This document shows positions 10,569 to 46,677 of a stretch of 64,000 nucleotides of DNA, in pieces. Source of the stretch: an uncultured Bacilli bacterium (GTDB lineage: Bacteria > Bacillota_I > Bacilli_A > RF39 > UBA660); assembly GCA_947627995.1 (NCBI GenBank), contig CANQYE010000001.1, forward strand, positions 8,889 through 72,888. The letters run 5' to 3'. The notes beneath the pieces were generated by a model. The model saw only the letters and a list, made by a program, of their open reading frames with translations. It was not told where the DNA came from and searched no databases. The translations under genes and the position numbers were made by a program. Each line of letters starts with the position of its first letter. Position 1 is the stretch's first letter.

Positions 10569-10593
10569 AGTGGTGCAAAGTGGAAGAAAGTGG
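10569..10593 (+). promoter_or_regulatory. Three direct AGTGG repeats at 10-bp period in the mraZ 5' UTR (putative MraZ operator)
   Basis: AGTGGtgcaaAGTGGaagaaAGTGGggg lies immediately upstream of the mraZ ATG (10603). It resembles the GTGGG x3 MraZ-binding repeats. Confidence 0.5.
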
Positions 10594-10602
10594 GGGATAC
10601 TG

Positions 10603-11040
10603 ATGTTTATGGGTGAGTTTCATCATAATCTTGATGAAAAAAATAGAGTCATTATTCCTGCTAAATTACGTGCAAACCTTGGTGAAAGATTTATTATAAC
10701 TCAAGGACTTGAAGGATGTTTATTTGTTTATCCTTTAAAAGAATGGGATAAAATAACAAAAAAACTTAATGGTTTACCTTTTACCAAAAAAGATGCTCGT
10801 ACATTTTCTAGATTTTTTATTTCTGGAGCCACTGAGTGTATATTTGACAAAATGGGTCGAGTAAATATTCCTTATCCACTTATTAAATATGCGAATTTAA
10901 AAAGAGAACTTATTATTATTGGCGTTAATGATCGTATAGAATTGTGGAGTAAAGAGAGATGGGAAAAATATTTGGATGAAAATTCATCAACATTTGAGAC
11001 AATAGCAGAAAATTTATTTTTAGGTGACGAAGATGCATAA
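10603..11040 (+). CDS. mraZ: Transcriptional regulator MraZ
   Basis: MFMGEFHHNLDEKNRVIIPAKLR is the MraZ start. Two MraZ repeats. The ORF track starts earlier at a GTG. Confidence 0.85.
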   Translation: MFMGEFHHNLDEKNRVIIPAKLRANLGERFIITQGLEGCLFVYPLKEWDKITKKLNGLPFTKKDARTFSRFFISGATECIFDKMGRVNIPYPLIKYANLKRELIIIGVNDRIELWSKERWEKYLDENSSTFETIAENLFLGDEDA

Positions 11041-11953
11041 AAGCGTAATGTTGAATGAAACTATTTCAGCTCTAAACATCAAAGATGATGGAATATATGT
11101 TGATGCTACTTTAGGATATGCAGGTCATAGTAGTGAGATTTTAAAACGATTAAAAAGGGGTCGTTTATTCGCCTTTGATCAAGATGAAGAAGCAAGAAAT
11201 TATTCTTTTGAAAAATTAGCAAAAATAAATTCTCAATTTAAAATATTGCCTTATAATTTTGTAAATATGAAAAAAGCCTTACAAAAAGAAAAAATTGATT
11301 TAATAGACGGAATACTTTTTGATTTAGGTGTATCTAGTCCACAAATCGATAATAAGGAACGAGGATTTAGTTTTATGCAAGATGCACCTTTAGATATGCG
11401 TATGAATAAAAATAATGAAAAATCAGCTTTTGAAGTTATTAATTCATATTCGGAAAAGAAATTATTAGAAATATTTTTTAACTATGGTGAAGAAAGAAAA
11501 AGTAAAATTATAGCTGAAAAAATTATTCAAAAAAGATCTCAAAAAGAAATAAGAACGACGTTAGAATTAGTTGAAATTATTAGAAATAGTGTTGGAGAAA
11601 AATATTTTAACTTATATCATCCTGAAAGAAAAATTTTTCAAGCAATTAGAATTGAAGTAAATGATGAGTTAAACGTTATAAAACAAGTTTTGCCGGATGC
11701 AATATCATTATTAAAAAAAGGTGGAAGAATAGTTATTTTAACCTTTCATTCTTTGGAAGATAGAATAGTCAAACAAATATTTAAAAAATATAGCGATGTT
11801 CCTGAAATAGTAAAAGGATTGCCAGAAATTCCTGAGGAGTATAAGCCTCTTATAAAATTAGTTAATAAAAAGCCAATACTTCCTAGTATTGATGAAATAA
11901 ATAAAAATTCTCGTAGCAAAAGTGCAAAATTGAGAATTGTTGAAAGGATTTAG
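11024..11953 (+). CDS. rsmH: 16S rRNA (cytosine1402-N4)-methyltransferase RsmH
   Basis: DATLGYAGHS SAM motif. Position directly after mraZ. Confidence 0.85.
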   Translation: MTKMHKSVMLNETISALNIKDDGIYVDATLGYAGHSSEILKRLKRGRLFAFDQDEEARNYSFEKLAKINSQFKILPYNFVNMKKALQKEKIDLIDGILFDLGVSSPQIDNKERGFSFMQDAPLDMRMNKNNEKSAFEVINSYSEKKLLEIFFNYGEERKSKIIAEKIIQKRSQKEIRTTLELVEIIRNSVGEKYFNLYHPERKIFQAIRIEVNDELNVIKQVLPDAISLLKKGGRIVILTFHSLEDRIVKQIFKKYSDVPEIVKGLPEIPEEYKPLIKLVNKKPILPSIDEINKNSRSKSAKLRIVERI

Positions 11954-11958
11954 ATAAT

Positions 11959-12258
11959 ATGGTAAAAGCAAAAAAATCAAAAATTTTTAAGGGTGAAAAA
12001 ATAACTTATGTTATCTTATTATTTTTAATTATGCTTGCACCTATAATGATTGTTTTTTCTAAAGCAATGTTATCTAAAACAAATTTTGAGCTTAAAAGAA
12101 TGCAAAGTAAAATAAATGTTCAAGAAGATAAAAATGAAAGCCTTAGCATGAAAATTAATGAATTAGCATCACTTGATAAAATACAATCACTTGCAAAGGA
12201 ATTAGGTTTGTCTTATAATAATAATAATATTAAAGTAATAAATGAAACCAAAAATTAA
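11959..12258 (+). CDS. ftsL: Cell division protein FtsL-like (small bitopic, coiled coil)
   Basis: 99 aa with one TM then a coiled coil. Sits between rsmH and the PBP gene. Confidence 0.5.
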   Translation: MVKAKKSKIFKGEKITYVILLFLIMLAPIMIVFSKAMLSKTNFELKRMQSKINVQEDKNESLSMKINELASLDKIQSLAKELGLSYNNNNIKVINETKN

Positions 12259-12269
12259 GGAAGTGTAGC

Positions 12270-14372
12270 ATGAAAAATAAAAAAAGCACCATTAAAATTA
12301 ATAAATTGTTAATTTTTTGTTTGCTTTTTTTATTTGGTTTAATTATTATTAGAGTATTTTTAGTTGCATATACTGGTATAGTTGATGGTATAAATTTAAA
12401 ACAATTTGCAAAATCTAGAGATACATATAAAAGTACTATAAGAGCAAATAGAGGTAGCATTTATGATATTAATGGAGAAATACTTGCTCAAAATGTCAAT
12501 TCATATAATGTAATTGCTTATTTAGATGAAAAAAGAACAACAGATGAAAATAAGCCACGTCATGTAGTTGATAAAGAAAAGACAGCTGAGGAATTAAGCC
12601 CAATTTTAAATATGGAAAAAGATGCTATCTTAAATCTTTTAAATAAAGATGTTTATCAAGTCGAATTAGGGCCAGGAGGTCGAAATATAACTGAGCTTAT
12701 AAAAGAAAAAGTAGAAAAATTAAATTTACCTGGAATAGATTTTATTAAGAGTGATAAAAGATATTACAAAATGGGTAATTTTGCTTCTTATGTAATAGGA
12801 TATGCAAGAAAAAATGATAATGATCAAATCATTGGACAAATGGGTGTAGAAAAGACATTTAATGATGTTTTAAAGGGAACAGATGGATATTTAGAATATC
12901 AAAGAGATATATTTGGGTATCAAATACCAAATACTCCTTCTATTAGAGAAGAACCGAAAAATGGGAATGATATTTATTTAACTATAGATAATAATATACA
13001 AATTTTATTAGAAAATTCGCTAATAAATTTATATGATAAATCGAGATATACATGGGCAACATTTACAATTGCAGATGCCAAAACAGGTGCAATTGTAGGC
13101 AGTGCCTCTTATCCTAGTTTTGATCCAAATACTTTAGAAGGGATTAATAGCTATTTAAATCCTTTAACTCAGTATGCTTATGAACCTGGTTCTACAATGA
13201 AAACTTTTACCTATATGGCAGCAATGGAAAATGGAGTATATAATGGGGAGAATACTTTTACTAGTGGTGGTATAAGTATAGGAGAAGATAAGGTTACGGA
13301 TTTTAATGAGGTAGGATTTGGAGTTATTAGTTTTGATAAAGGTTTTGCATATTCTTCAAATGTTGGAGCAACTTTACTAGCTCAAAAAATTGGTAGGAAT
13401 AATTTAAAGGAATATTTTAATAGATTAGGTTTTGGTAAAAAAACAGGAATTGAATTGCCGGGTGAAGCGAATGGAACGCTTAATTTTAAATACGATATTG
13501 AATTAGCTACAGCATCTTTTGGGCAAGGTATTACTACAACTCCTATTCAAAATATTCAAGCATTAACGGCTTTAACTAATAATGGGATAATGCTTAAACC
13601 ATACATTGTAGATAAAATTATGGATTCAAATGGGATTACTATTGAAAAAGGAAAACGAACAGAGGTTGCTACAGTTGCATCCAAGGAAACAGTAGCAAAA
13701 ATGTTAGATTTAATGAAAAGCGTGGTCAATGATGGTTTGACATCAGCTAAATATTATCAAACAGAAAATGTAACATTAATTGGAAAAACAGGAACTGCAC
13801 AAATAGCAGATCCAAATGGTGGTTACTTAAAAGGAGATACAAATTATATTAGAAGTTTTGCTGGAATATTTCCTTACAACGATCCAAAGTATATAATTTA
13901 TATTTCTGTAAAACAGCTAAGTGGGTCAGTATCTGTAATGGCTAATGCTGTTAAAGGAGTAGTAGAAGAGGTTGCTAATTACAAAAATATAACAGAAACA
14001 GAAAATGCAATGGATGAAAGTAAAATTATAAAATTAACTACTTATATATCAAAAGATAAAGAAGAAGTTACAAATAATTTGTCTTTATTAAATTTAATAC
14101 CAGTTATAATTGGTGATGGGAATAAAATAGTAGATCAATATCCTAATAAAAATGCAACTCTAGTTTCTGGCAATAAGGTGTTTTTACTAACTGATGGACA
14201 AAACATTACTTTACAGAACATGAATGGCTGGTCAAGAAGTGATATAAAAAATTATTGTTCTCTTACAAAAATTAAATGTATTTTTGAGGGAAAAGGTAAA
14301 GCAAGCGAGATATCTTATCCAGAAGGAACAAATATTAAAGATATTGATGAATTAAAAATATTTTTACAATAA
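12270..14372 (+). CDS. pbpB: Class B penicillin-binding protein (PBP2B/FtsI) with C-terminal PASTA domains
   Basis: N-terminal TM. STMK, SSN and KTGT motifs. About 140 aa of C-terminal PASTA repeats. Confidence 0.85.
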   Translation: MKNKKSTIKINKLLIFCLLFLFGLIIIRVFLVAYTGIVDGINLKQFAKSRDTYKSTIRANRGSIYDINGEILAQNVNSYNVIAYLDEKRTTDENKPRHVVDKEKTAEELSPILNMEKDAILNLLNKDVYQVELGPGGRNITELIKEKVEKLNLPGIDFIKSDKRYYKMGNFASYVIGYARKNDNDQIIGQMGVEKTFNDVLKGTDGYLEYQRDIFGYQIPNTPSIREEPKNGNDIYLTIDNNIQILLENSLINLYDKSRYTWATFTIADAKTGAIVGSASYPSFDPNTLEGINSYLNPLTQYAYEPGSTMKTFTYMAAMENGVYNGENTFTSGGISIGEDKVTDFNEVGFGVISFDKGFAYSSNVGATLLAQKIGRNNLKEYFNRLGFGKKTGIELPGEANGTLNFKYDIELATASFGQGITTTPIQNIQALTALTNNGIMLKPYIVDKIMDSNGITIEKGKRTEVATVASKETVAKMLDLMKSVVNDGLTSAKYYQTENVTLIGKTGTAQIADPNGGYLKGDTNYIRSFAGIFPYNDPKYIIYISVKQLSGSVSVMANAVKGVVEEVANYKNITETENAMDESKIIKLTTYISKDKEEVTNNLSLLNLIPVIIGDGNKIVDQYPNKNATLVSGNKVFLLTDGQNITLQNMNGWSRSDIKNYCSLTKIKCIFEGKGKASEISYPEGTNIKDIDELKIFLQ

Positions 14373-14473
14373 AATGTATTAAAAAAATCAGAATATATTT
14401 CTGTTTTTTTTGTTTGTGTTGTGTTAAATTTACAACTTAATTTAAACGTGTTATACTTATTTCGGTGATTTTT

Positions 14474-15238
14474 ATGTTAAAAATTGAAAATTTAAGTATT
14501 AAAGTCTTAAATAAAGAAATATTAAATAATATAAATTTAACAATAAATGATGGTGAAATCCATGTAATTATGGGGCCTAATGGAATAGGCAAAAGTAGCT
14601 TATGCCATTGTATTATGGGAAATCCAGATTATGTTATTTCTAATGGTAATATTTTTTATGATAAAGAGAATTTAAATCTTCTAGATGTTGCAAAAAGAGC
14701 TAAATTAGGAATATACTATTTATTTCAAAACCCGCCAATGATTGAAGGTGTTACTAATTCAGCTATGATTAGAGCTGCTTTAACCTCCAAAACAGGGGAA
14801 CATATTGATATTTTTAAATTTAATAAAGAACTTAAAGAAGTTGCTAATAAATTAAATTTAGATCCTTCTTTTATACATCGAGAAGTTAATGTTAATATGA
14901 GTGGTGGAGAAAAGAAAAAAAATGAAATGTTGAATCTATGGATGCTTAAACCAAATTTTATAATGTTAGATGAACTAGATTCTGGTTTAGATGTGGATAG
15001 TATTAAAGTTGTTTTAAATAGTTTAAAAGAATATATTAAAAAATATAAAGCTTCTTTATTGATAATTACTCATAATACAAAAATATTTGATTATTTAAAG
15101 CCTGATTATATTCATATACTAAATAATAAAACGATAGTTAAAACTGGTAATATAAATTTAGCTTATGAAATTGAAAAAAATGGTTTTAATGAAATTTCTA
15201 AGTCATTTAAAATAAGCGAGAATAAATCTTATGAATAA
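14474..15238 (+). CDS. sufC: Fe-S cluster assembly ATPase SufC
   Basis: MLKIENLSIKV start. Walker A GPNGIGKSS and an ABC signature. The ORF track starts at an upstream GTG. Confidence 0.8.
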   Translation: MLKIENLSIKVLNKEILNNINLTINDGEIHVIMGPNGIGKSSLCHCIMGNPDYVISNGNIFYDKENLNLLDVAKRAKLGIYYLFQNPPMIEGVTNSAMIRAALTSKTGEHIDIFKFNKELKEVANKLNLDPSFIHREVNVNMSGGEKKKNEMLNLWMLKPNFIMLDELDSGLDVDSIKVVLNSLKEYIKKYKASLLIITHNTKIFDYLKPDYIHILNNKTIVKTGNINLAYEIEKNGFNEISKSFKISENKSYE

Positions 15239-15887
15239 AATAGTAGTAGATAAAGATAAATATTTATCTTTAGATAATAAAAAAGTAATTTTAGATGTTA
15301 GGTTAAATGAACTAGAGCTTAATATTACTGGAAATGTTGTCGTTTATGAAAAATTGACTATTGTTGGCGATTATAATTTAAAAATAAAAGTTAATGAAAA
15401 TAGTAGTTTAGAAATGTATATAATAAATTCTTTATCTTGCGGAAATGAAAATATTATTATTGAAAGTTTAGAAAATAGTAATTTATATTTAGAAGAGAAA
15501 ATACATTTAAAAGATAAATTAAATTATTCTATAGAAAACAATTTAAAATCTTCTAATATAAATAATGAAATTAAAGTTCATGTTGTGACTGAAAATAATG
15601 GAAAGATAAACGCTTGTATTAAATCTAGTGTTTTAAAAGATACTAAGAACAATTTTTTAAATGAGGAAATAAAAGTTTTAACTTTAAATAATGCTAAAAA
15701 TGTTATAAAGCCAGATTTATTAGTTAGCAGTAATGATATTATTGCTAATCATAGTGCAACTATAAGTAACATTAAACTTGGTGATTTATATTATTTACAA
15801 AGTAAGGGCATTAATGAAAAAGAAGCAAAAGAATTATTTAAAAATGGGTTTTTATATAACAAAAAAATAAATGAAGTTATAAATTAG
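15231..15887 (+). CDS. Miniature SufB/SufD-family protein (218 aa)
   Basis: C-terminus IKPDLLVSSNDIIANHSATISNIKLGDLYYLQSKGINEKEAKELFKNGF matches the conserved SufB/D C-terminal region. Overlaps the sufC stop. Confidence 0.55.
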   Translation: MNKIVVDKDKYLSLDNKKVILDVRLNELELNITGNVVVYEKLTIVGDYNLKIKVNENSSLEMYIINSLSCGNENIIIESLENSNLYLEEKIHLKDKLNYSIENNLKSSNINNEIKVHVVTENNGKINACIKSSVLKDTKNNFLNEEIKVLTLNNAKNVIKPDLLVSSNDIIANHSATISNIKLGDLYYLQSKGINEKEAKELFKNGFLYNKKINEVIN

Positions 15888-15899
15888 GGAGGTGATAAT

Positions 15900-17102
15900 T
15901 TGGATTTTACTAGAAAAGATTTTCCAATGTTAAATAGTGATATTATATATTTTGATAATGGAGCTACTACTTTTAAACCAGATTCTGTTATTCAAGCTAT
16001 TAGTGATTATTATAGTAATTATTGTGCAAATGCACATAGAGGAGATTATGATATCTCTTATAAAGTTGATTTAGAATATGAAGGAGCAAGAGATGCTGTA
16101 AAAGAATTTATAAATGCTGCTTCTCGTGATGAAATTATTTTTACATCTGGAGCAACTGAAGGCCTTAATATGATAGCAGATGGTTTTTTTAAAAACATTT
16201 TAGAGATAAATGATGAAATAATTATTAGTGATAGTGAACATGCTTCTAATGTTTTACCATGGTTTCGATTGGCTAAAACTAATGGATGCATTATCAAAAA
16301 GATTCCTTTAGATAAAGATTATAAAGTAACAATCGATGCTTTAAAAAGCGTTATTACACCTCAGACTAAAGTTATATCTCTTGCTCAAGTAACAAATGTT
16401 ATAGGAGATATTAGACCGATAAAAGAAATATGTGAATTTGCTCATCAATTAGGTATTTTTGTTGTTGTTGATGGATCTCAAAGTGTTCCACATATGAAAG
16501 TAAATGTTCAAGATTTAGATTGTGACTTTTTAGTTTTTTCTGGACATAAAATGTGTGGACCGACTGGTATTGGAATTTTATATGGCCAAAAGGAGTTATT
16601 GGAAGAAATGATACCAATAAATTTAGGTGGTGGAATGAATGAGTCTTTTGACACTATTGATTCTGTGATGCTTAAATCACTGCCACATAGGTTGGAAGCT
16701 GGGACTCCTAATATAGCAGGAGCGATTGGTCTTAAAAAAGCTATTGAGTATTTAAATAATCTTAAAATGGATAATATTCATAAATATGAACAAAATTTAA
16801 GAAAATATATGATAGATAGACTTATAAAAATTCCTCACGTTGATATAATTAATTTGAATAGTGAAAGTGGAATAATTACTATAAATGTTGATGGGATTTT
16901 TAGTCAGGATGTTGCTTATTATTTAAATAAATATAATATTTGTGTACGTGCTGGGAATCATTGTGCTAAAATATTAAAACAATCAATAGGTGTTAAAAAT
17001 ACACTTCGAATAAGTTTATATTTTTATAATACATATGAAGAAATTGATAATTTTATCGAGCTTATTTCTGATAAAGAAAAGATATTGAAAGAGATGATAT
17101 AA
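15900..17102 (+). CDS. sufS: Cysteine desulfurase SufS (class II)
   Basis: PLP-Lys in FSGHKMCGPTG. Active-site Cys in RAGNHCA. Confidence 0.85.
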   Translation: MDFTRKDFPMLNSDIIYFDNGATTFKPDSVIQAISDYYSNYCANAHRGDYDISYKVDLEYEGARDAVKEFINAASRDEIIFTSGATEGLNMIADGFFKNILEINDEIIISDSEHASNVLPWFRLAKTNGCIIKKIPLDKDYKVTIDALKSVITPQTKVISLAQVTNVIGDIRPIKEICEFAHQLGIFVVVDGSQSVPHMKVNVQDLDCDFLVFSGHKMCGPTGIGILYGQKELLEEMIPINLGGGMNESFDTIDSVMLKSLPHRLEAGTPNIAGAIGLKKAIEYLNNLKMDNIHKYEQNLRKYMIDRLIKIPHVDIINLNSESGIITINVDGIFSQDVAYYLNKYNICVRAGNHCAKILKQSIGVKNTLRISLYFYNTYEEIDNFIELISDKEKILKEMI

Positions 17103-17539
17103 TGGATGAAAATTTAAGAAGAGAAATCATTTTAGAAAATTATCAGAATCCGATTAATAGAGAGATAATAAAAGATAATAGATATATAAAAGTTAATTCT
17201 AACAATGAATCTTGTATTGATAATATTGATTTATTTATATTAATTGAAAATAATAAAATAAGAGATATAAAATTTGATGGAGAAGCTTGTGCAATAAGTA
17301 CTGCCAGTACGTCTTTAATGATTAAAAGTTTAATAGATAAAAGTTTGGATGAAGTTAAAGATATTTGTGAAAATTTTACAAAAATGATTAATGGTGATAG
17401 TAAATATGAAATATCCGGAGAACTATTATCTTTTAACGAAATTTATAAACAAGCGAATCGAAAGCATTGTGCTATTTTACCTTGGTTAGGTATAAAAAAA
17501 GCAATTGAAGAATATAAAAATCAAAATAACACAGATTAA
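17102..17539 (+). CDS. sufU: Sulfur-acceptor scaffold SufU
   Basis: Three conserved Cys (NESCID, GEACAIS, RKHCAIL). Confidence 0.75.
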   Translation: MDENLRREIILENYQNPINREIIKDNRYIKVNSNNESCIDNIDLFILIENNKIRDIKFDGEACAISTASTSLMIKSLIDKSLDEVKDICENFTKMINGDSKYEISGELLSFNEIYKQANRKHCAILPWLGIKKAIEEYKNQNNTD

Positions 17540-17606
17540 TGTGTTATTTTTTTTATTGAGTTATAATTTAAGTTTATGATATTATTTATTTGTAGAGGTG
17601 TGAAAT

Positions 17607-18302
17607 ATGAAGAAGACAATATTATTATTTATAATAATTAGTTTAGCATTTTTAAGTGTAGTTGGTTGTGCAAATAAAAAAAATCTAATTTCAAAGGATG
17701 CTATAAAATTTAAAGAAGAGTATGAAAGTTTAAATAATACTTCAAATTCAGATGAAAAAGTACATAGAAGTTTATCTATTTCTGAAAATAATCCGTTTGT
17801 TTATTCTAATGCAAAAGAGATTTTAAAAAAAATCGAAAATAAGGAAACTTTTTATATTTATTTTGGTTCATCTTATTGTCCATGGTGCAGAAGCGTTATA
17901 GAAAAAGTAATTGAAGTAGCTAAAAAAAATAATATAAGCACTATTTATTATATTGATATATGGAATGGAGATCATAATGAAATTTTAAGAGATACATACG
18001 AACTTGATGAAAATAATGAAATAAAGTTGGTTTCAAAAGGCGCAGAAGAATATCAAGATCTATTACGTTATTTAAATAACGTATTAGGAGAATATACATT
18101 AACAAGTAAAGATGGCCAAAAAATATTGGTTGGGGAGAAAAGAATCTTTGCTCCGAACTTTATTTATATTAAAGATGGAAAAGCTGTTAAATTAGAAAGT
18201 GGTAATTCAGATAAGCAAACAGATTCCAGAATGGACTTAACTGAAGAAATATTAAAAGACGAAGAAATTAAGTTCAATGAATTTTTTAAAAATGATAATT
18301 AA
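17607..18302 (+). CDS. Thioredoxin-fold lipoprotein (CPWC motif)
   Basis: Lipobox VVGC after a signal peptide. YFGSSYCPWCRSV. Confidence 0.55.
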   Translation: MKKTILLFIIISLAFLSVVGCANKKNLISKDAIKFKEEYESLNNTSNSDEKVHRSLSISENNPFVYSNAKEILKKIENKETFYIYFGSSYCPWCRSVIEKVIEVAKKNNISTIYYIDIWNGDHNEILRDTYELDENNEIKLVSKGAEEYQDLLRYLNNVLGEYTLTSKDGQKILVGEKRIFAPNFIYIKDGKAVKLESGNSDKQTDSRMDLTEEILKDEEIKFNEFFKNDN

Positions 18303-18329
18303 AACAAATCTAAAAAACGATTTGTTTTT
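18302..18329 (+). terminator. Rho-independent terminator
   Basis: Stem AAACAAATC ... GATTTGTTT then T-run. Confidence 0.45.
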
Positions 18330-18383
18330 AAATATTTTGTATAAAAAATGATAAATTATAAATTAAATTAGGAGTAATAAAAA

Positions 18384-19211
18384 ATGGAAAAATTTAAAGA
18401 AATAGAAAGAAGTATAATTAAAACTTATCGAAAAGAAATTTGGAGCAAATTTATAAAAGGAGTTAAAAATTATAAGTTAATTGAAGAACACGATAAAATA
18501 ATGGTATGTATAAGTGGAGGGAAAGACTCTTTTTTATTAGCTAAATGTATACAAGAATTAAAAAGACATTCTATAAAAAACTTTGATGTTTGTTATGTGG
18601 TAATGGATCCTGGTTATAGTAAGAATAATCGTAAACGTATCTTAGATAACGGAAAACTTTTAAATATACCAATTCAGATATTTAAAACAAATATATTTGA
18701 TGCAGTTGAAAATGTTTCATCAAGCCCCTGTTATTTATGTGCTAGAATGAGAAGAGGGTATTTATATAGTAAAGCGCAGGAATTAGGATGCAATAAAATA
18801 GCTTTGGGCCATCATTTTGATGATGTTATAGAAACAACCTTACTTTCAATGTTTTATGGTTCAGAAATAAAAACTATGATGCCAAAATTACATAGTGAAA
18901 ATTTTAAAGGTCTAGAATTAATAAGGCCATTATATTTAGTTAAGGAAAAATCTATCTTGGCTTGGTGTAATTTAAACAATTTACAATTTCTTAATTGTGC
19001 ATGTCATTTTACTGAAAACCATTTTTCAATTAATGATGGAACCAGTAAACGAAAAGAAATAAAAGAGTTAATCAAAAAATTGAAAGAAACTAATGACAAT
19101 GTTGATAATAATATTTTTAAATCATTGGATAATATTAATTTAAATTGTGTATTGGGAACAAAGAAAAATAGTAAATATAAAAGTTTTTTAGAAGATTATG
19201 ATAAAAAATAA
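18384..19211 (+). CDS. PP-loop ATPase, TtcA/TtuA-like tRNA thiolation enzyme
   Basis: SGGKDS PP-loop plus CxxC pairs (CYLCARMRRG, CACHF). Confidence 0.6.
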   Translation: MEKFKEIERSIIKTYRKEIWSKFIKGVKNYKLIEEHDKIMVCISGGKDSFLLAKCIQELKRHSIKNFDVCYVVMDPGYSKNNRKRILDNGKLLNIPIQIFKTNIFDAVENVSSSPCYLCARMRRGYLYSKAQELGCNKIALGHHFDDVIETTLLSMFYGSEIKTMMPKLHSENFKGLELIRPLYLVKEKSILAWCNLNNLQFLNCACHFTENHFSINDGTSKRKEIKELIKKLKETNDNVDNNIFKSLDNINLNCVLGTKKNSKYKSFLEDYDKK

Positions 19212-19260
19212 AATATATTAGAATTTTTTTGTTAAAAAATGTATATGATATAAAATATTC

Positions 19261-19292
19261 TTGACTTGCGGGGGGGGGTATTAGTTTATAAT
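19261..19292 (+). promoter_or_regulatory. Promoter TTGACT-(20 nt spacer containing G9)-TATAAT, candidate phase-variable
   Basis: TTGACT at 19261-19266. G9 at 19270-19278. TATAAT at 19287-19292. Spacer is 20 nt; 17-18 would be optimal. Confidence 0.5.
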
Positions 19293-19315
19293 ATCTTTAG
19301 AAAGGAAAGAATGAA

Positions 19316-20608
19316 GTGAAAAAGAAAAGTTTATTATTTACAATCATTGCTTTAGTGCTTTTTATACCAAAAGTATATGCAGTTGAAACAGTAGATTGCT
19401 CAAATGGAAGACCTAAAGCACAAGTCGGTACAAGTTGTTATTCATCATTAAATGATGCATTAGAAAGTGCTAATGAAGAAAATAACACAATTAAATTATT
19501 AGATGATGTTTCTAACTACACCATAAAGATTTCAAAAGATCAAACAATAGTACTAGATTTAAATACTCATAAAATAACTGCTCCTGATAATAGTTGGGCA
19601 ATTTACAATGAAGGAAATCTAACTATTACTAATGGAACAGTGTTAGGAAATAGCAAAAGTGCTGCTATTCGTAACAATGGAAAAAAATTAGTTGGTAAAT
19701 CATTAACTGTTCAATCTTCTTTTATAGCTATTATTAATAATGATGTAGTAGCAATAGATGGTGTTGAACAAGAAAGTGGTCGACCTACATTAATTTTAGA
19801 AGATAGTACAATTAATGGAAATGCAGGATTTAGTGGTTCCGGTTTACAATTAGGCGGAAACGCAAATGTTAAAAATGTGAAGTTTACGGCTACTAAAGGA
19901 AGTGCATTAATTCGTGTTTTCGACGGAAAAACAGAAACAGAAGTTGTACTTGATAATTTATCTACAACAAATAGAGGTCTTATTAATGCTGGGAAAAATA
20001 GCACTAATGATGAACATGGAATTAAAGTAGAAATTAAAAATATATCTGAAAATGATAAATCAAAATTGACACTATCTCCTGAAGGAGATGCTGTAATTAT
20101 TCCGGATAAAGAGTATGCAGACAAAGTTTTAAAATTTGCACTTAAAGGTTCAACAATTATTATTCCAGAAGGATTCTATATGGATAAAATTGATATACGT
20201 GAAGGTGTAAATATAAAGTTTGTTGATGGAAATAATGGAAAACAAATATTAGAAAAAAATGAAGATGGTACTTATAACATTGTTAAAAGAGCAGATTATT
20301 CAAAAATTGATAAATTACTAAATGAAATCGAAAAATTAAATAAAGATGATTATACAAAAGATACATGGGATGCATTAGAAAAAGCAATATTAGCTGTTGA
20401 TTATGATAAAACTGCAAAAGAACAAGATAAAGTTGATGCAATGGCTAGCGTAATTGAAAAAGCAATGAATAATCTTGTTAAAATAAAAAAAGAAAATACA
20501 ACTATAAATCCAAACACTGGTGATAGTTCTATAATTTATATAATAATTGGTGGAATATCAGTACTTGGAATAGTTACTAGCGTTTTATATTTAAAAAAGA
20601 ATAGATAA
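19316..20608 (+). CDS. Cell-wall-anchored surface protein with NPNTG sorting signal
   Basis: GTG start after AAAGGAAAG. Signal peptide. NG-rich repetitive core. C-terminal NPNTG + hydrophobic segment + KKNR. Confidence 0.6.
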   Translation: MKKKSLLFTIIALVLFIPKVYAVETVDCSNGRPKAQVGTSCYSSLNDALESANEENNTIKLLDDVSNYTIKISKDQTIVLDLNTHKITAPDNSWAIYNEGNLTITNGTVLGNSKSAAIRNNGKKLVGKSLTVQSSFIAIINNDVVAIDGVEQESGRPTLILEDSTINGNAGFSGSGLQLGGNANVKNVKFTATKGSALIRVFDGKTETEVVLDNLSTTNRGLINAGKNSTNDEHGIKVEIKNISENDKSKLTLSPEGDAVIIPDKEYADKVLKFALKGSTIIIPEGFYMDKIDIREGVNIKFVDGNNGKQILEKNEDGTYNIVKRADYSKIDKLLNEIEKLNKDDYTKDTWDALEKAILAVDYDKTAKEQDKVDAMASVIEKAMNNLVKIKKENTTINPNTGDSSIIYIIIGGISVLGIVTSVLYLKKNR

Positions 20609-20618
20609 TAAATTAATG

Positions 20619-20643
20619 GAAATAGGAAACTATTTCTTTTTTT
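20619..20643 (+). terminator. Rho-independent terminator
   Basis: Stem GAAATAG-gaaa-CTATTTC followed by T7. Confidence 0.55.
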
Positions 20644-20723
20644 ATGATTAAATAATTTCACAATTTTCTATTTTACTTTTTTCGAAAACTAGAGTATAAT
20701 TATGGATAATAGGAGTGAAACTT

Positions 20724-21968
20724 ATGAGAAAGATTATTGCTAGTATTGATTTAGGCTCTGATACCATTAAAATAATAGTTGGTGAAATATATAATAATAA
20801 ATTAAATATTTTAGCAATATCTGATACCCCTAGTAAGGGAATAAAAAAAGGCTTAGTAGTTAATCCCAATGAAATGATGAATTGTTTGAAGAAGGGATTA
20901 AAAAAGATTGAAGAATCACTAGATTTAAAAGTCAAAAAAGCTATTATAAACGTTTCTGCAATAGATGCTAATTTTATAAGTAGTGAAGGTACTTGCACTA
21001 TTAATAATGCAGATGGAATTGTTCGTGGGACGGATATAGTGCGTGCTTTGCAAGCTTCTACTTATAATAAAGTAGCATTAAATAAGGAATTAATAAATGT
21101 AATACCAGTGGATTATATTCTAGATGATGAACAAAAAGTTATAAATCCAAAGGGTTTAAAAGCAAATAGAATAGTAGCTCGTTCAATTTTAATCACAACT
21201 CCTAAAAAAAATATATATAATGTTTTATCGTGTTTCGATAAATTAGGAATTGAAATAATAGATATTTCCGTAGGAGCTATTGGAGACTATGAAACATTTA
21301 AAAATAATAAGATTTCCAATTCTATCGGAGCGATTATTAATATGGGTAGCAACACAACTACTATAAGTATATTCAATAAAGGTATTATGACAAATTCTGA
21401 AGTTATTGAATTGGGCAGCGAAAATATAGATAATGATATATCTTTTATATATAAGATTAATAAAGTAGAATCAAAAAGATTAAAAGAAAATTTAGCTTTA
21501 GGACATAAAAGATTGGCCTCTGCTACAGTAAGCGAAGAAATAAAAAATAAATTAGGAGATATTATAAAAATAAATCAGTATGAAATATCTGAAATTGTGA
21601 TGAGTAGAATAGCTGAAATTCTAAATAAAGTAAAAAAAGAAATTAACTACTTAACAAAACATGAAATTAGTTATATAATATTTACAGGAGGATTGACAGA
21701 AATAACTGATCTTTCGTTATTACTAGAAGAAATATTTGGAAAAAATGTTACTTTAGGTAAAATAGATATAATTGGTGCTAGAAATAGAAAGTATAGTTCA
21801 GCTATTGGAATGATTAAATATTTTAATAATAAATTGAAACTTAGAGATAAGGAGTTTTCTATATTTGATTTTGAAGAATTAGAATATTTGAGTAGTGCTA
21901 ATAAAAAAATGAATATTTCAAATGACACTATATTTGGTAAAATATTTGGATATTTTTTTGATAATTAA
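20724..21968 (+). CDS. ftsA: Cell division protein FtsA
   Basis: MRKIIASIDLGSDTIKI actin-like ATPase. Directly upstream of ftsZ. Confidence 0.85.
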   Translation: MRKIIASIDLGSDTIKIIVGEIYNNKLNILAISDTPSKGIKKGLVVNPNEMMNCLKKGLKKIEESLDLKVKKAIINVSAIDANFISSEGTCTINNADGIVRGTDIVRALQASTYNKVALNKELINVIPVDYILDDEQKVINPKGLKANRIVARSILITTPKKNIYNVLSCFDKLGIEIIDISVGAIGDYETFKNNKISNSIGAIINMGSNTTTISIFNKGIMTNSEVIELGSENIDNDISFIYKINKVESKRLKENLALGHKRLASATVSEEIKNKLGDIIKINQYEISEIVMSRIAEILNKVKKEINYLTKHEISYIIFTGGLTEITDLSLLLEEIFGKNVTLGKIDIIGARNRKYSSAIGMIKYFNNKLKLRDKEFSIFDFEELEYLSSANKKMNISNDTIFGKIFGYFFDN

Positions 21969-21983
21969 GGGAGAGTGTATTAT

Positions 21984-23060
21984 ATGAATTTAGAGATGGA
22001 TCAAATAGCTAAAATTAAAGTTATTGGTGTAGGTGGCGGTGGTTGTAATGCCGTTAATAGAATGATAGAGGCAGGAGTTAAGGGCGTTGAATTTATTGTA
22101 GCTAATACTGATTTACAAGTATTGAATGCTTCTCCAGCAGAAATAAAATTACAATTAGGTGAATCTATTACAGGTGGTTTAGGAGCAGGAGCAAATCCTA
22201 ATGTTGGTCGAGAAGCTGCCATGGAATCAAGAAGTGAAATAGAAGAAGTTTTACGTGGCGCTGATATGGTATTTGTTACATGCGGACTTGGTGGTGGTAC
22301 TGGAACTGGAGCAGCACCAATAATTGCAGAAATTGCTCAAAGCTTAAACGCATTAACTGTTGGAATAGTTACAAAGCCTTTTAAATTTGAAGGAAAAAAA
22401 CGTATGGAACAAGCATTACTTGGATTAGAGGAATTGAAAAAGAATGTCGATACTTTAATAGTAATTCCAAATGATCGTTTAAGAGATATTATTGATAAGT
22501 CTACGCCGATGGTCGATGCGTTCAAAGAAGTTGATAATGTATTACATAGAGGTGTACAATCAATAAGTGATTTAATTGCAGTATCAGGATTAGTTAACTT
22601 AGATTTTGCTGATGTTAAAGCTGTAATGGAAAAACGAGGTAATGCTTTAATAGGTATTGGACTTGGAATTGGTGAAAATAGAGCTATTGAAGCGGCAAAA
22701 CAAGCTGTTTCATCTCCTCTTTTAGAAACTTCAATTAATGGTGCTACTGATGCAATTATTAATATCACTGGTGGAAATTCATTAACTCTTTTTGAGGCCG
22801 AAGATGCAGCTGAAGTGGTAAGAGCTGCTGCTAATACGGATATAAATACTATTTTTGGTGCGGTAATTAATGAAAATTTAAATGATGAAGTAATTGTAAC
22901 AGTAATTGCAACAGGTTTTGATGATAATGACTCTGAAAGCTTATATCAAAAAGAAAATACAATATCTAGCGATGATCTGCCAAGACTTGATAGCGATGTA
23001 GAAGTTCTAGATAATGATATTGATATTCCATCATTTTTAAGAAACAGAGATAATTTTTAA
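21984..23060 (+). CDS. ftsZ: Cell division GTPase FtsZ
   Basis: [13 protein letters not shown] tubulin signature and GGGTGTG. Confidence 0.9.
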
Positions 23061-41856: not shown

Positions 41857-41887
41857 TATTATATGATAGAGAATGGGAAGGGTTATT

Positions 41888-42658
41888 ATGGCGAAGACAA
41901 ATAGAGGTAAAACTATTGCTGTTTTTTCTGCAAAAGGCGGAGTTGGGAAAACGGTTTTTACTTTAAATTTAGCTGGAATATATAAACAACTTAATAAAAA
42001 AGTTTTAATAATAGATCTTGATTTAACAAATGGGGGTATAGCTTTATCATTGAATAGAAGAGTAGATAGAACAATCTATAATTTATTTGATGATTTAAAT
42101 AATAATCGTTATAAAGAATTTAAAGATTATGTAACAAACTATGAAAAAAATTTAGATTTTATTGCTTGTCCTAAAGATCCAAGAGATGCAAATAAAATTG
42201 ATGCAAAATATATCGATATTATTATCGAGCGAGCTTCGTATTTATATGACGCAGTAATTTTAGATACTTCTCATGTATTAAATGATATTAATTTAGTTGC
42301 TCTTGATAAAGTAGATAAAATTTTATTTTTAGTTACAAATGATCCTTTAGATTTAAAAAATGTTAAGTCTTTAATAAGTATATTTAAAAATTTAGATAAA
42401 ACAAATTATAAAATGATTTTAAATAATTCTTGCAATTTAAATAAAGATTATTTTTCATTATATGATATCAAAAATATTTTAAAAACAAATATTGATTATA
42501 TTTTAACTCAAAATTTTTATATCAAGAACATAGATATATTTCTTCTTAATGGGAAAATATTTATTATGGATAAGAAGATTGCTTCATCCAAAGATTATGG
42601 AGTAATGTTAACTATCGCAACTGATATATTTAAAGAAGGTGATGGAAAAAATGAGTAA
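41888..42658 (+). CDS. ParA/MinD-family ATPase, TadZ/CpaE-like
   Basis: Deviant Walker A AVFSAKGGVGKT. Sits upstream of the CpaF-type ATPase. Confidence 0.6.
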   Translation: MAKTNRGKTIAVFSAKGGVGKTVFTLNLAGIYKQLNKKVLIIDLDLTNGGIALSLNRRVDRTIYNLFDDLNNNRYKEFKDYVTNYEKNLDFIACPKDPRDANKIDAKYIDIIIERASYLYDAVILDTSHVLNDINLVALDKVDKILFLVTNDPLDLKNVKSLISIFKNLDKTNYKMILNNSCNLNKDYFSLYDIKNILKTNIDYILTQNFYIKNIDIFLLNGKIFIMDKKIASSKDYGVMLTIATDIFKEGDGKNE

Positions 42659-43973
42659 GTCTTTAATTGAAGAATTTAATGTTAAAGTAAATAAGCAAAA
42701 ACCTTATATAGTAAATGATTATGATATTTTTCCAGATAAAAATTTATTAGATGAATTACGTAATAAGATAATTGGTAATTTAATTGATAAAGAAATTCCT
42801 AAAGAAAAAATTAATGAGTTTATTGATGATGAAATAAATTTGGCTTTAGAGGGGCATAATTTAACCAATTTAGAAAGAAGTCATATATATAATTTAATTG
42901 ATAATGAAATAAATGGTTTTGGGCCTTTAAATGAAATTTTGAAAGATAATAATGTAACAGAAATAATGGTAAATAGTCCTAAAGAAATTTATATAGAAAC
43001 TGATGGAAAATTAGTTAGAGATGAAAGTATTTCATTTATTAATAATGAACATATTATTAGAACTATTCAAAGGCTTATCTCACCGATGGGTAAAACAATA
43101 AATACTAAAAATCCTATTGTTGACTCAAGGCTAATGGATGGTTCAAGGATTAATGCTGTAATCCCACCATTATCTATTAAAGGTCCAGTATTAACTATTC
43201 GTAAATTTAAGCCTTATTTAAATACAATTGATGATTTAATAAGATCTGGTTCTTTAACACCATATATGGCAAGATTTCTTGAAGCTGCTGTAATTGGTAA
43301 ATTGAACATTATTATTTGTGGTGGATCAGGAAGTGGAAAAACAACTCTTTTAAATATTTTAAGTAGTTTTATAAACGATAATGAAAGAATTATTACTATT
43401 GAAGATGCCGCAGAATTAAAATTAAAACAAAAACATGTATTATCCTTAGAAACACGTCCGAATAATTATGAAAATGAAGGAGAAATTACTATTCGTGATT
43501 TAGTAATCAATTCATTAAGAATGCGACCTGATAGAATTATTGTCGGTGAAGTTCGTGGGAAAGAAGCATTTGATATGATGCAAGCTATGAATACTGGACA
43601 TGATGGGTCAATTACTACTCTTCATGCTAATAGTCCTAAAGATGCTTTAAATAGGTTAGAGACAATGGTTATGATGAGTGATATGGGTCTTCCACTAAAT
43701 GCTGTAAAAGAATATATTTATAATGCAATAGATTTAGTTATAAATGTTGAACGATTAAGTGATGGTAGACGAAAAATAACAAGTATATGTGAAGTTGATA
43801 AAATAGAGGATAATGAAATAAAGTTAAAAGAGATATTTGCTTTTAAAATTAATGGATTATCTTCAAAAAATATGGTTACAGGAGAATATATTTTATATAA
43901 ATTTATTCCAAAAGTTTTTTATAAACTAAAGAAAAGAGGAATTACATCTTTAAGTGATATTTTTGAAAAATAA
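42651..43973 (+). CDS. CpaF/TadA-type (VirB11-like) secretion ATPase
   Basis: NVTEIMVNSPKEIYIE. Walker A GGSGSGKTTLLN. Walker B, His box and Asp box present. Confidence 0.8.
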   Translation: MSKSLIEEFNVKVNKQKPYIVNDYDIFPDKNLLDELRNKIIGNLIDKEIPKEKINEFIDDEINLALEGHNLTNLERSHIYNLIDNEINGFGPLNEILKDNNVTEIMVNSPKEIYIETDGKLVRDESISFINNEHIIRTIQRLISPMGKTINTKNPIVDSRLMDGSRINAVIPPLSIKGPVLTIRKFKPYLNTIDDLIRSGSLTPYMARFLEAAVIGKLNIIICGGSGSGKTTLLNILSSFINDNERIITIEDAAELKLKQKHVLSLETRPNNYENEGEITIRDLVINSLRMRPDRIIVGEVRGKEAFDMMQAMNTGHDGSITTLHANSPKDALNRLETMVMMSDMGLPLNAVKEYIYNAIDLVINVERLSDGRRKITSICEVDKIEDNEIKLKEIFAFKINGLSSKNMVTGEYILYKFIPKVFYKLKKRGITSLSDIFEK

Positions 43974-43987
43974 AAGAAGGTGATTAG

Positions 43988-45010
43988 GTGAAAAATATAA
44001 ATTGGGAATTATTAATTTTTCAAGTTATTATTGCAATAATTATTGTTTTTCTAATCATTTTTTTCATAAAAATAAAATCAAATTTAAAATTAGAAAAAAG
44101 ATTCTCATATTTTAGTTTAAATACATTAAATGAAGAAAAAGAGCTTTCATTCCTAGATTATATTTTTAATAAGTTATGGAAATTTGTTCATAATTATGCA
44201 AAATTTTTAAATCATTTTAAATGTTTTAGAAAATATGGGTTAAAATATGAGAAATACATTCCATCAAAAAATAAATTTAAAATTAATGGTACTGATTATG
44301 TTGTAATAAAATTTATAACTGGATTAATTGTTGTTTTAGTAGCAGTAATATATAATATTATTAATAGAAATAATATTAATTTCCTTATTTATGTTATTTT
44401 ATTTTTATTTAGTTATACAATTGTAGATATTTTACTAGATATAAAATTTAAAAGAAAAATAAAAAATGTAAAAAAAGATTTGTATAAAACTATTATTATC
44501 ATGAATAATTCTTTTAAATCTGGAAAAACAATATTAAAAGCGGTTGATAATGTAAGAAAATCTTTAAAAGGCGATATAGCAGATGAATATAATAAAATTT
44601 ATACAGATTTATGTTATGGACTTTCTATTGAATCAGCATTTCAAAGATTTTATGAGCGAGTTAAAATAGAACAAATAAAATATATTGTTCTTTCAATATC
44701 TATTTTAAATAAAAGTGGGTGCAATATTAATGAGATATTTAATTCAATTGAAAAAAATGATTTAGATGATCAAAAAATTAATAATACAATAAAAACACAA
44801 TTATTATCTAGTAAATTATTTTTTAATTGTGCTTTAAGTTTGCCAATAATTTTAGTAAGCATAATATTTATTATAAATAGAAATTACTTCAATCCTTTTA
44901 TTTTTACAATTGTAGGTGTTTTATTTTTGATCTTATTAATTAGTTTATATTTATTATATATAATTCTAATAAAAAAGATATTCGAGGTTGATATAGATGA
45001 AAGAGTTTAG
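43988..45010 (+). CDS. TadB-like inner-membrane platform protein (T2SS-F domain)
   Basis: GTG start. TM-flanked cytoplasmic domain in GspF-like topology. Position after the ATPase. Confidence 0.55.
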   Translation: MKNINWELLIFQVIIAIIIVFLIIFFIKIKSNLKLEKRFSYFSLNTLNEEKELSFLDYIFNKLWKFVHNYAKFLNHFKCFRKYGLKYEKYIPSKNKFKINGTDYVVIKFITGLIVVLVAVIYNIINRNNINFLIYVILFLFSYTIVDILLDIKFKRKIKNVKKDLYKTIIIMNNSFKSGKTILKAVDNVRKSLKGDIADEYNKIYTDLCYGLSIESAFQRFYERVKIEQIKYIVLSISILNKSGCNINEIFNSIEKNDLDDQKINNTIKTQLLSSKLFFNCALSLPIILVSIIFIINRNYFNPFIFTIVGVLFLILLISLYLLYIILIKKIFEVDIDERV

Positions 45011-46647: not shown

Positions 46648-46677
46648 AAATCACTTAAAATTATAGTGATTTTTTTA
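46648..46677. terminator. Bidirectional terminator between convergent frr and the cysteine desulfurase gene
   Basis: A-run, AAATCACT-9 nt-AGTGATTT, T-run. Confidence 0.6.

Follow-up and report, generated by a model that had tools for sequence, protein, structure and literature searches.

A suf operon without sufB in a clade of uncultured gut Bacilli points to a possible SufB-independent SufC-SufD module

Can Fe-S clusters be assembled by a SUF machinery that has no SufB? To our knowledge, current models treat SufB as indispensable in every SUF-type machinery: SufBC forms the minimal core, SufD counts as an accessory paralogue, and SufC2D2 is taken for an artefact. The question is raised by a 64-kb stretch of DNA (the window) from an uncultured gut bacterium of the Bacilli, an organism that also carries cell wall and sporulation genes. 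Profile matches place sufC, a gene for a miniature SufD (SufD*), sufS and sufU at 14474-17539 of the window, the same four-gene set that an initial annotation had read from the sequence:

14474-15238, + strand: sufC, 254 aa from the ATG at 14474; TIGR01978 278.7 bits (cutoff 212.8)
15231-15887, + strand: mini-sufD, encoding SufD* (218 aa); PF01458 SUFBD_core 50.1 bits (cutoff 27)
15900-17102, + strand: sufS, class II cysteine desulfurase; PF00266 447.6 bits, TIGR01979 463.7 bits (cutoff 475.1)
17102-17539, + strand: sufU, zinc-type sulfur-transfer protein; TIGR01994 106.8 bits (cutoff 92.5)
14429..14457, + strand: promoter-like site upstream of sufC, TTTACA-17 nt-(TG)TATACT; sigma-70-like, 10/12, extended -10 TG
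17523..17557, + strand: intrinsic terminator-like hairpin with U-run, 11-bp stem and 6-nt loop; overlaps the sufU stop codon
18384..19211, + strand: ttcA (tRNA 2-thiocytidine synthetase, provisional name), two genes downstream; PF01171 67 bits (cutoff 27)

The signals around these genes delimit a compact unit. The promoter-like site is the top sigma-70-like match upstream of sufC, in a region where the number of such matches equals the shuffle expectation, and as a real promoter it is only suggestive. For sufC, a GTG at 14465, upstream of the ATG, offers an alternative start; sufS begins with a TTG after the ribosome-binding site GGGAGGTG, and the sufS/sufU junction is a TAATG overlap. The hairpin after sufU was found by direct folding (-10.5 kcal/mol, z = -3.7; none of 200 shuffles folds as well), whereas a consensus terminator scan of the region gave no match because the stem is AT-rich. 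Judged by this layout, sufC, sufD*, sufS and sufU form a single, translationally coupled transcription unit, predicted to end at the terminator after sufU. The claim that the operon lacks sufB was borne out as well: the terminator hairpin, and no sufB, follows sufU, and when every six-frame ORF in the window was compared by phmmer with the SufB and SufD sequences of E. coli, no other SufB/SufD-like ORF was detected.

SufC has all of its ATPase motifs (Walker A GPNGIGKS, the Q-loop Gln, the signature MSGGEKK, Walker B LDELD and the H-loop ITH), and its only cysteines are Cys44 and Cys46 beside Walker A, leaving the C-terminus free of Cys. The catalytic motifs RAGNHC and SGHK were found in SufS, which scores just under its TIGR01979 cutoff and, like the M. 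penetrans enzyme, carries Gln at the position of B. subtilis His342, the residue of zinc-ligand swapping with SufU. In SufU, the zinc/persulfide residues (Cys-x-Asp, Cys, Arg-x-x-Cys) are at least 90% conserved among 63 homologues. Within the clade described below, conservation does not extend to the Lys that precedes the third Cys. The idea that SufU had turned back into an IscU-like scaffold, with His before the third Cys, was dropped as a feature of the clade, as this His occurs in only 2 of 29 clade members.

The fourth product, encoded between sufC and sufS as in Bacillota suf operons, is harder to place by sequence profiles. The proposed HMM comparison of the 218-aa protein with SufB and SufD matched the SUFBD core above the gathering score, over residues 150-207 only, and missed the curated cutoffs of TIGR01981 for SufD (59.4 bits, cutoff 222; the last ~100 residues alone align) and TIGR01980 for SufB (28.8 bits, cutoff 346), as well as those of NF008194 (31.4 bits, cutoff 489) and the SmsB profile NF052511 (23.8 bits, cutoff 650). 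The motif ANHSATISNIKLGDLYYLQSKGINEKEAKELF, cited in the initial annotation, is indeed present; the conclusion drawn there, that the protein keeps only the C-terminal SufB/D segment, has to be given up, since this segment is just what sequence HMMs detect. An AlphaFold model (pLDDT 89) displays a 15-strand beta-helix plus the C-terminal helical domain, and its superposition on E. coli SufD covers 210 of the 218 residues at 2.2 A. What it lacks is the N-terminal helical domain, the first beta-strand beginning at residue 2, together with ~1.5 turns of helix and a portion of the C-terminal helices. The model thus shows SufD* as a miniaturised yet, by prediction, structurally complete SufD.

Its residues point the same way. 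P347, H360, Y374, R378, G379, A385 and F393 are the conserved SufD residues (PMC6006206), and H360 was the sole essential residue found by mutagenesis (PMC5571166). SufD* P161 and H174 correspond to the E. coli dimer-interface residues P347 and H360, and Y188, K192, G193, A199 and F207 to Y374, R378, G379, A385 and F393, with Lys192 at the Arg378 position in the sufB-less clade; the SufC-binding C-terminal residues are kept. At the SufB ligand sites, SufD* has Ile in place of Cys405 and Ser in place of Glu434, no equivalent of SufB Cys254, Cys405 or Glu434 was found, and the family alignment holds no conserved Cys at all. Of the earlier designation "mini SufB/D", the SufD part therefore stands, SufD also being the best-matching profile, while likeness to SufB does not.

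The arrangement recurs well beyond the window. A sufC-sufD*-sufS-sufU operon with no sufB in the operon or its flanks was found in 28 further species representatives, which form with the window a monophyletic clade of uncultured gut Bacilli (bootstraps 99-100/100), its other members all being metagenome-assembled genomes. In sister lineages (33 related species), SufD is likewise short, at 221-259 aa, but a full-length sufB follows sufU, so that half size by itself, contrary to what had been supposed, is no sign of a minimal scaffold. A second clade, clade C, has an operon that also lacks sufB; neither sufU nor sufB adjoins its sufS. The SufD* family comprises 298 clusters at 50% identity (E<=1e-30), and among the best 150 of these, 84 bear the signature of the sufB-less clade, with a median length of 220 aa. 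The dN/dS values of 0.09-0.3 for sufD*, similar to those of sufC (0.04-0.19), show the gene to be under purifying selection. Together with the intact fold model and the conserved family, this upholds the earlier reading of the 218-aa ORF as a real gene rather than a decayed fragment.

The search for sufB was extended as far as the available loci permitted. Around the window, flanks out to contig positions 14061-97635 (84 kb of the 185-kb contig) contain no further PF01458 gene. In 30 loci of the sufB-less clade, with ~20 kb covered for each relative, neither sufB nor a remnant was found within 10 kb. A tblastn search over 500 kb of loci from clades B and C, with 8 SufB queries, likewise detected no sufB or pseudogene remnant outside sufD*. 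A SufB profile built from 11 neighbouring sequences was also run against a database of 5.8 billion proteins, where other lineages filled the 8000 candidates considered; the 120 matches listed are all group-A-like SufB of 435 aa and have no bearing on the sufB-less clade. Literature on sufB-less sufCDSU operons, shortened SufD, 'SufCD' and SUF in RF39/Mollicutes was searched and turned up no account of such an arrangement.

Conserved columns are replaced in the sufB-less clade at 10 of 88 positions in SufC and SufD, compared with 2 of 119 for the SufS-SufU pair (Fisher p=0.005). This p-value overstates how independent the changes are, since all of those specific to the clade go back to one ancestral branch and amount to a single event. 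The exchanged SufC and SufD residues are invariant elsewhere, from E. coli through to the nearest relatives; among them are F98, F146, Q158, Y204 and G222 of SufC, and in SufD H290, S297 and a Gln replaced by Glu. In E. coli numbering, the clade-specific SufC substitutions are S44C, F98M, F146M, A/K160W, Y204N and G222K; NMSGGE replaces GFSGGE in the signature, and the H-loop His is followed by Asn rather than Tyr. New residues have meanwhile become fixed, W160 and M98 in SufC as well as, on the strand next to H174, E145 and N141 in SufD* (each in 30/30 members). Clade C, which retains the canonical SufC and SufD residues, serves as an internal control. The remodelling thus appears specific to the partners of SufB and points indirectly toward its absence. 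Cys44 of SufC occurs in 25 of the 30 clade members but in none of the relatives that have sufB. The example of SmsC raised the thought that it might be a new cluster ligand, which was set aside: elsewhere the position takes Ser, Ala or Thr, one subclade has no Cys there, and this SufC lacks the C-terminal extension that houses the SmsC ligands.

The organism evidently still needs Fe-S clusters, because it encodes MtaB (above its curated cutoff), a sub-cutoff match to TtcA (NF007972, 194.5 bits, curated cutoff 272) that keeps the CxxC-x-R-x-RRG motif, and a Radical_SAM/HemN_C gene whose beginning just falls within the flanking locus, at its edge; TtcA we take to be a [4Fe-4S]-dependent client enzyme. 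These clients, and the intact ATPase motifs of SufC, are difficult to reconcile with sufC and the 218-aa ORF being decaying leftovers on the way to the Mycoplasma state of SufS and SufU alone. Such a state does exist in related genome-reduced Mollicutes (PMC13066941), and the Gln in SufS is Mycoplasma-like, but a reading frame that stays intact in 28 species and at least 84 clusters, low dN/dS in both genes and newly invariant residues leave decay barely conceivable; the selection data have, in effect, already refuted it. Very improbable, too, is a minimal SMS-like system of the SmsC-SmsB type, in which the 218-aa protein would be a scaffold of ancestral, SufB*-like type that was acquired independently. 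Its SmsB score is far below the cutoff and SufD is its best profile, while alignments suggest a place inside SufD, next to group A proteins. Gene order and trees run on without a break into those of neighbouring sufCDSUB operons, as vertical descent from SufD would have it. Moreover, SmsC holds its cluster by C-terminal Cys218, Cys239 and Cys242, for which this SufC has no counterpart, and SMS runs on sulfide without a desulfurase, whereas SufS and SufU are both encoded here. We consider the locus best explained as a functional, streamlined SUF operon.

Whether such an operon works with or without SufB is the closer call. A real possibility is that the SUF system is an ordinary one whose operon has been split: sufB would have been relocated within the ancestral genome of the clade, and a SufB-SufC2-SufD* scaffold would still be built. 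A short SufD works beside full-length SufB in the sister lineages, and among the relatives sufB lies 1.8 kb from sufU in one, L049, with gaps of 350-450 bp in several others. A class II SufS normally needs SufU, and the clade C sufS without sufU nearby suggests that relocation happens in this group. The Fe-S enzymes encoded by the organism and the status of SufB as the otherwise universal core of SUF (PMC6006206) favour this reading as well. It has to contend, however, with the failure to find sufB or a remnant in any of the 30 loci or in the 84 kb of this genome, and it leaves unexplained why invariant SufC and SufD residues changed in this clade alone, when its SufS and SufU remained canonical and clade C shows no such changes. 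Over relocation we favour, tentatively and by a small margin, a SufC-SufD module that has become independent of SufB. Against it stand the fact that all SUF and SMS systems characterised so far use SufB as their scaffold, the view of E. coli SufC2D2 as non-physiological (PMC6006206) and the lack of a conserved Cys in SufD*, as a site of His and Glu only would be unusual. The absence of sufB, moreover, is established over ~20 kb around the operon of each relative and over 84 kb in the present genome, and the split suf operons of clade C make relocation plausible.

In a SufB-independent module, SufS and SufU would mobilise sulfur from cysteine, as in Bacillus, while SufD* would form a homodimer via its beta-helix ends, like E. 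coli SufD, and bind two SufC. The resulting SufC2-SufD*2 ATPase complex would be equivalent to E. coli SufC2D2 and would do its work without SufB in this clade. The nascent cluster could be assembled at the D*-D* interface, by the invariant H174 and the clade-invariant E145 and N141, or on SufU, with iron and ATP-driven release provided by SufC-D*. A single loss of sufB in the clade ancestor, at which point the SufC-SufD module was remodelled, would account for the origin of this system. A radiation of gut Bacilli, of at least 84 clusters at 50% identity, may then conduct Fe-S biogenesis without any SufB, a SufC2-(mini-SufD)2 complex fed by SufS-SufU replacing SufBC2D, though we put this forward with less than even confidence.

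A widespread, selected operon with SufC and SufD but no SufB would directly test the view of SufB as indispensable. If the reading is true, the SufD paralogue, not SufB, is the surviving beta-helix subunit, a mirror image of archaeal SMS, and the 'non-physiological' SufC2D2 complex gains a physiological role; at 218 and 254 aa, its very small size would also make it suited to separating the contributions of SufD and of the SufC ATPase, for example to iron entry or cluster release. Should sufB sit elsewhere, a SufD cut to about half its size, without the N-terminal helical domain, would still serve a SufBC2D-type system and would retain some value for structure-function work.

Among known systems, the sufCDSUB operons of Bacillus and Enterococcus, in which SufS-SufU feeds a SufBC2D scaffold, are the closest. 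They belong to the same phylum and share the order sufC-sufD-sufS-sufU, a zinc SufU rather than SufE, the SufC ATPase motifs and the equivalent of SufD His360. They differ in having sufB, not a terminator, after sufU, and a SufD of ~420-440 aa with the N-terminal helical domain, and in lacking both the clade-specific replacements at otherwise invariant SufC and SufD sites and the Gln at the His342 position of SufS. E. coli forms a SufC2D2 complex (PDB 2ZU0) and a SufD homodimer (1VH4); it has SufB, and its SufC2D2 is considered a by-product without physiological role, whereas here the corresponding assembly would be the sole SufC-containing complex if sufB is truly absent. The SmsC2B2 complex (PDB 9H78) of archaea and some anaerobes is built on a SufB-like SmsB instead of a SufD-like subunit, carries a [4Fe-4S] cluster on C-terminal SmsC cysteines that this SufC does not have, and is fed by sulfide without SufS and SufU, both of which the present operon inherited from a sufCDSUB ancestor. 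With the SufS-SufU-only state of Mycoplasma, finally, it shares the reductive evolution of SUF in low-GC Bacillota and the exchange of the zinc-swapping His for Gln in SufS, but it has retained SufC and SufD under selection, in an organism with Fe-S enzymes, a cell wall and sporulation genes.

The four genes at 14474-17539, all in the same direction, matched protein profiles as follows.

Operon genes in the window and their profile scores
Gene 1: sufC; TIGR01978, 278.7 bits (cutoff 212.8)
Gene 2, 15231-15887: 218-aa ORF (mini-sufD, product SufD*); PF01458, 50.1 bits; TIGR01981 sufD, 59 bits (cutoff 222); sufB, 28.8; SmsB, 23.8
Gene 3, 15900-17102: sufS; PF00266, 447 bits; TIGR01979, 463.7 (cutoff 475.1)
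Gene 4: sufU; TIGR01994, 106.8 bits (cutoff 92.5)

SufD* was recognized by the SUFBD core profile, but stayed far below the sufD cutoff and scored lower still with sufB; at the sequence level only the final ~60-100 residues of the SufB/SufD core are matched. The genes lie close together, with mini-sufD starting within the final sufC codons (ATGAATAA), sufS using a TTG start behind the ribosome-binding site GGGAGGTG, and the sufS stop overlapping sufU (TAATG). Upstream of sufC, the region's top promoter-like match (TTTACA-17-TG-TATACT, 14429-14457) is only suggestive of a candidate promoter. Directly 3' of sufU lies an 11-bp hairpin with a U-run (-10.5 kcal/mol, z = -3.7, 0 of 200 shuffles as good), and the transcription unit therefore stops where Bacillus-type operons go on to sufB. 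With E. coli SufB and SufD (NC_000913) as phmmer queries, the 218-aa ORF alone matched among all six-frame ORFs of the 64-kb window, which belongs to a 185-kb contig (ena:ERZ27249276 NODE_5), and no other PF01458 gene was seen in the window and its flanks (contig positions 14061-97635). Together with the profile matches, these searches confirm the reduced sufC-mini SufB/D-sufS-sufU operon, free of full-length sufB or sufD, that the initial annotation had described.

The operon lies within a stretch that would usually be the division/cell-wall (dcw) cluster (10570-23060), in the order mraZ, rsmH, ftsL, PBP2B (12270-14372), sufC-D*-S-U, a thioredoxin-like lipoprotein, a ttcA-like gene, a 430-aa secreted protein, and ftsA and ftsZ (20715-23060); mur, mraY and ftsW are absent between the PBP gene and ftsA. 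The lipoprotein (17607-18302, 231 aa), between the suf terminator and the ttcA-like gene, shows weak similarity to PedC/BrcD disulfide isomerases; besides a signal peptide with a VVGC lipobox it contains the thioredoxin-like motif YCPWC.

Far from being a fragment, the 218-aa protein is a whole SufD in miniature. Its AlphaFold model, built from 16 homologues (pLDDT 89, pTM 0.85), has 15 beta-strands spanning residues 2-180, followed by three helices, and profile-profile alignment equates its H174 with E. coli SufD His360 and SufB His433. Systematic mutagenesis singled out His360 as the sole essential residue of SufD (PMC5571166). According to PMC6006206, SufD conserves Pro347 and His360 at the dimer interface and, in the C-terminal domain that binds SufC, Tyr374, Arg378, Gly379, Ala385 and Phe393. 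Their counterparts in SufD*, P161, H174, Y188, K192, G193, A199 and F207, vary little or not at all across the family, and the earlier statement that only the C-terminal SufB/D segment is kept does not hold. Lost are the N-terminal helical domain, about 1.5 of nine helix turns, loops and some C-terminal helix. SufB-specific ligands are missing, with Ile at the Cys405 and Ser at the Glu434 position, and the family alignment contains no conserved cysteine.

One scan of GTDB species-representative genomes yielded 70 loci, whose source organisms are without exception uncultured Bacilli of the gut or rumen, labelled Candidatus Coprovivens or uncultured Tenericutes, Mollicutes, Bacilli or Erysipelotrichaceae. 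Typing of all their ORFs by phmmer and hmmsearch, with measured lengths, gave three arrangements.

Operon arrangements among the related loci
Group A (33 loci and two cut by contig ends): sufC, sufD (221-259 aa), sufS, sufU, full-length sufB (435 to ~500 aa)
Clade B (28 species representatives, the window and one extra contig): sufC, mini-sufD (188-242 aa), sufS, sufU; no sufB in the flanks examined
Clade C (6 loci: L027, L033, L034, L044, L046, L075): sufC, sufD (~265 aa), sufS, then unrelated genes (mutL, proS, pheST); neither sufU nor sufB within 10 kb

A sufB-less sufCDSU operon is thus the rule across a whole clade, not a peculiarity of the window, and when eight SufB proteins from neighbouring lineages were run by tblastn against the clade B and C loci (500 kb), no match fell outside sufD. 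In neighbour-joining gene trees of SUF proteins, clade B is monophyletic (bootstrap 99/100 for SufS, 100/100 for SufC and for both combined), so that the change happened once. In group A, sufB mostly follows sufU immediately (1.8 kb off in one case). Since a short SufD accompanies a normal SufB there, it is a lineage-wide trait, and size alone is no sign of a minimal scaffold; the initial interpretation is supported in part, by a real, selected SufD-type protein and by the operon without sufB, while the argument from size falls. Group A SufB is compact too (435-436 aa in L037, L038, L041 and others; 495 in E. coli), both beta-helix subunits being trimmed in these lineages, and some of these proteins are encoded on 1.2-1.3 Mb contigs. 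Clade C is a second monophyletic clade, with canonical residues kept in SufC and SufD. The operon's surroundings vary in other clade B members, for example after frr in locus L005.

Decay of the 218-aa ORF, part of the case named as refuting the annotation, is effectively excluded. Nei-Gojobori dN/dS between moderately diverged species pairs is 0.09-0.3 for mini-sufD, 0.04-0.19 for sufC and 0.03-0.12 for sufS, and the family is large: 44 homologues (195-264 aa) came from a word-indexed search, and when 1.84 billion representatives were searched exhaustively, 298 clusters at 50% identity matched with E<=1e-30, the top 150 of them all 127-273 aa long. The clade B signature, Glu145 together with Lys192, occurs in 84 of these 150 (median 220 aa). 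On one metagenome contig of a species with a 195-aa SufD (L007, 2785-3565), sufC is broken into ORFs of 190 and 80 aa by a frameshift or assembly error; it is intact in other contigs of that species.

Clade B was compared column by column with the remaining loci, the E. coli proteins serving as reference and for numbering; E145 and position 141 are numbered in SufD*. Clade B SufC replaces residues that do not vary among group A, clade C and E. coli.

Replacements in clade B
SufC F98M: 30/30
SufC F146M, inside the ABC signature (GFSGGE to NMSGGE): 28/30
SufC Q158H: 29/30
SufC residue 160 to Trp: 30/30
SufC Y204 to N/H/Q, right after H-loop His203
SufC R206K, G222K, Y241F
SufC S44C, beside Walker A: 25/30
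SufD His290 equivalent (33/34 group A, 6/6 clade C): hydrophobic residues
SufD Ser297 to Thr or Asn
SufD Gln, invariant in group A (34/34), to invariant Glu (E145): 30/30; on the strand matching that of Cys405 in SufB
SufD Asn at 141: fixed, invariant
SufD G365S, R378K

Columns at least 90% conserved outside clade B but replaced in it number 10/88 in SufC and SufD against 2/119 in SufS and SufU (Fisher p = 0.005), all clade B substitutions mapping to one ancestral branch, a single historical event. The shift is specific to SufC and SufD, the usual partners of SufB, and does not occur in clade C, where sufB is likewise missing from the operon. The Cys of S44C lies two residues past Walker A GKS(T/S), giving GKSTIC in most of clade B (L005, L008-L022 and other loci) and LCHC (context GKSSLCHC) at residues 43-46 in the window (14600-14611); in E. 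coli and in every relative with sufB the residue is Ser or Ala, and in one clade B subclade Thr or Ser.

SufS of the window carries Gln in its FSQDVAYY motif where B. subtilis SufS has His342, as in 28/29 clade B, 6/6 clade C and 21/34 group A proteins; His342 swaps onto the SufU zinc, and Gln there is reported to lower Mycoplasma penetrans SufS activity (PMC13066941). A second, class I (IscS/NifS-like) desulfurase of 374 aa (46675-47799, minus strand) stands alone beside frr, and its neighbourhood contains no gene resembling IscU or NifU; the enzyme probably serves thio-cofactor synthesis or tRNA thiolation, and a partner scaffold may lie elsewhere in the genome.

Judging by its visible genes, the organism needs Fe-S clusters. 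The window encodes the radical-SAM methylthiotransferase MtaB (TIGR01579, 442 bits, cutoff 357) and a TtcA-like protein with its CxxC motif kept (NF007972, 194.5 bits, under the curated cutoff of 272). A flank gene with Radical_SAM and weak HemN_C matches runs off the locus end, and the contig flanks (L079, L081) also carry genes for Fur, rubrerythrin and a flavin reductase-rubredoxin fusion. Because such client genes are present, some scaffold must exist. SpoVA, SpoIIP, YabP, YqfD, GPR and a penicillin-binding protein show a walled spore-former, not a mycoplasma; the organism, at ~25% GC, is anaerobic and forms spores, and is not the wall-less 'Tenericutes' that the labels of related MAGs suggest. 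At 41873-45692 lies a Tad/type II-IV secretion-like set (a ParA/CpaE-like ATPase, a T2SSE ATPase, two T2SSF membrane proteins), followed by a TM2/zinc-ribbon protein.

What this scaffold might be can be read in two ways. We give not quite an even chance to the loss of sufB in the clade, with a remodelled SufC2-SufD*2 complex functioning without SufB; loss would account for the remodelling being limited to SufB's partners and for the difference from clade C. A merely relocated sufB, whose product would assemble with SufC2 and SufD* as in group A, is a serious possibility, if short of probable: it is biochemically simpler, and clade C illustrates that operon splitting does occur in the group. 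The case is of moderate interest at present, and of high interest if sufB is truly absent genome-wide.

Our literature search found no description of a sufCDSU operon lacking sufB or of a SufD of half the usual size. If sufB was lost, SufC2-SufD*2 would be the same assembly as E. coli SufC2D2, which is probably non-physiological (PMC6006206), and the cluster might be built where the two SufD* subunits meet (H174, E145) or on SufU. An SMS-like origin of SufC-SufD* is very improbable: SmsC holds its cluster through C-terminal Cys218, Cys239 and Cys242 (PMC12192291), which the window SufC lacks, while profiles, gene order and trees link SufD* to SufD.
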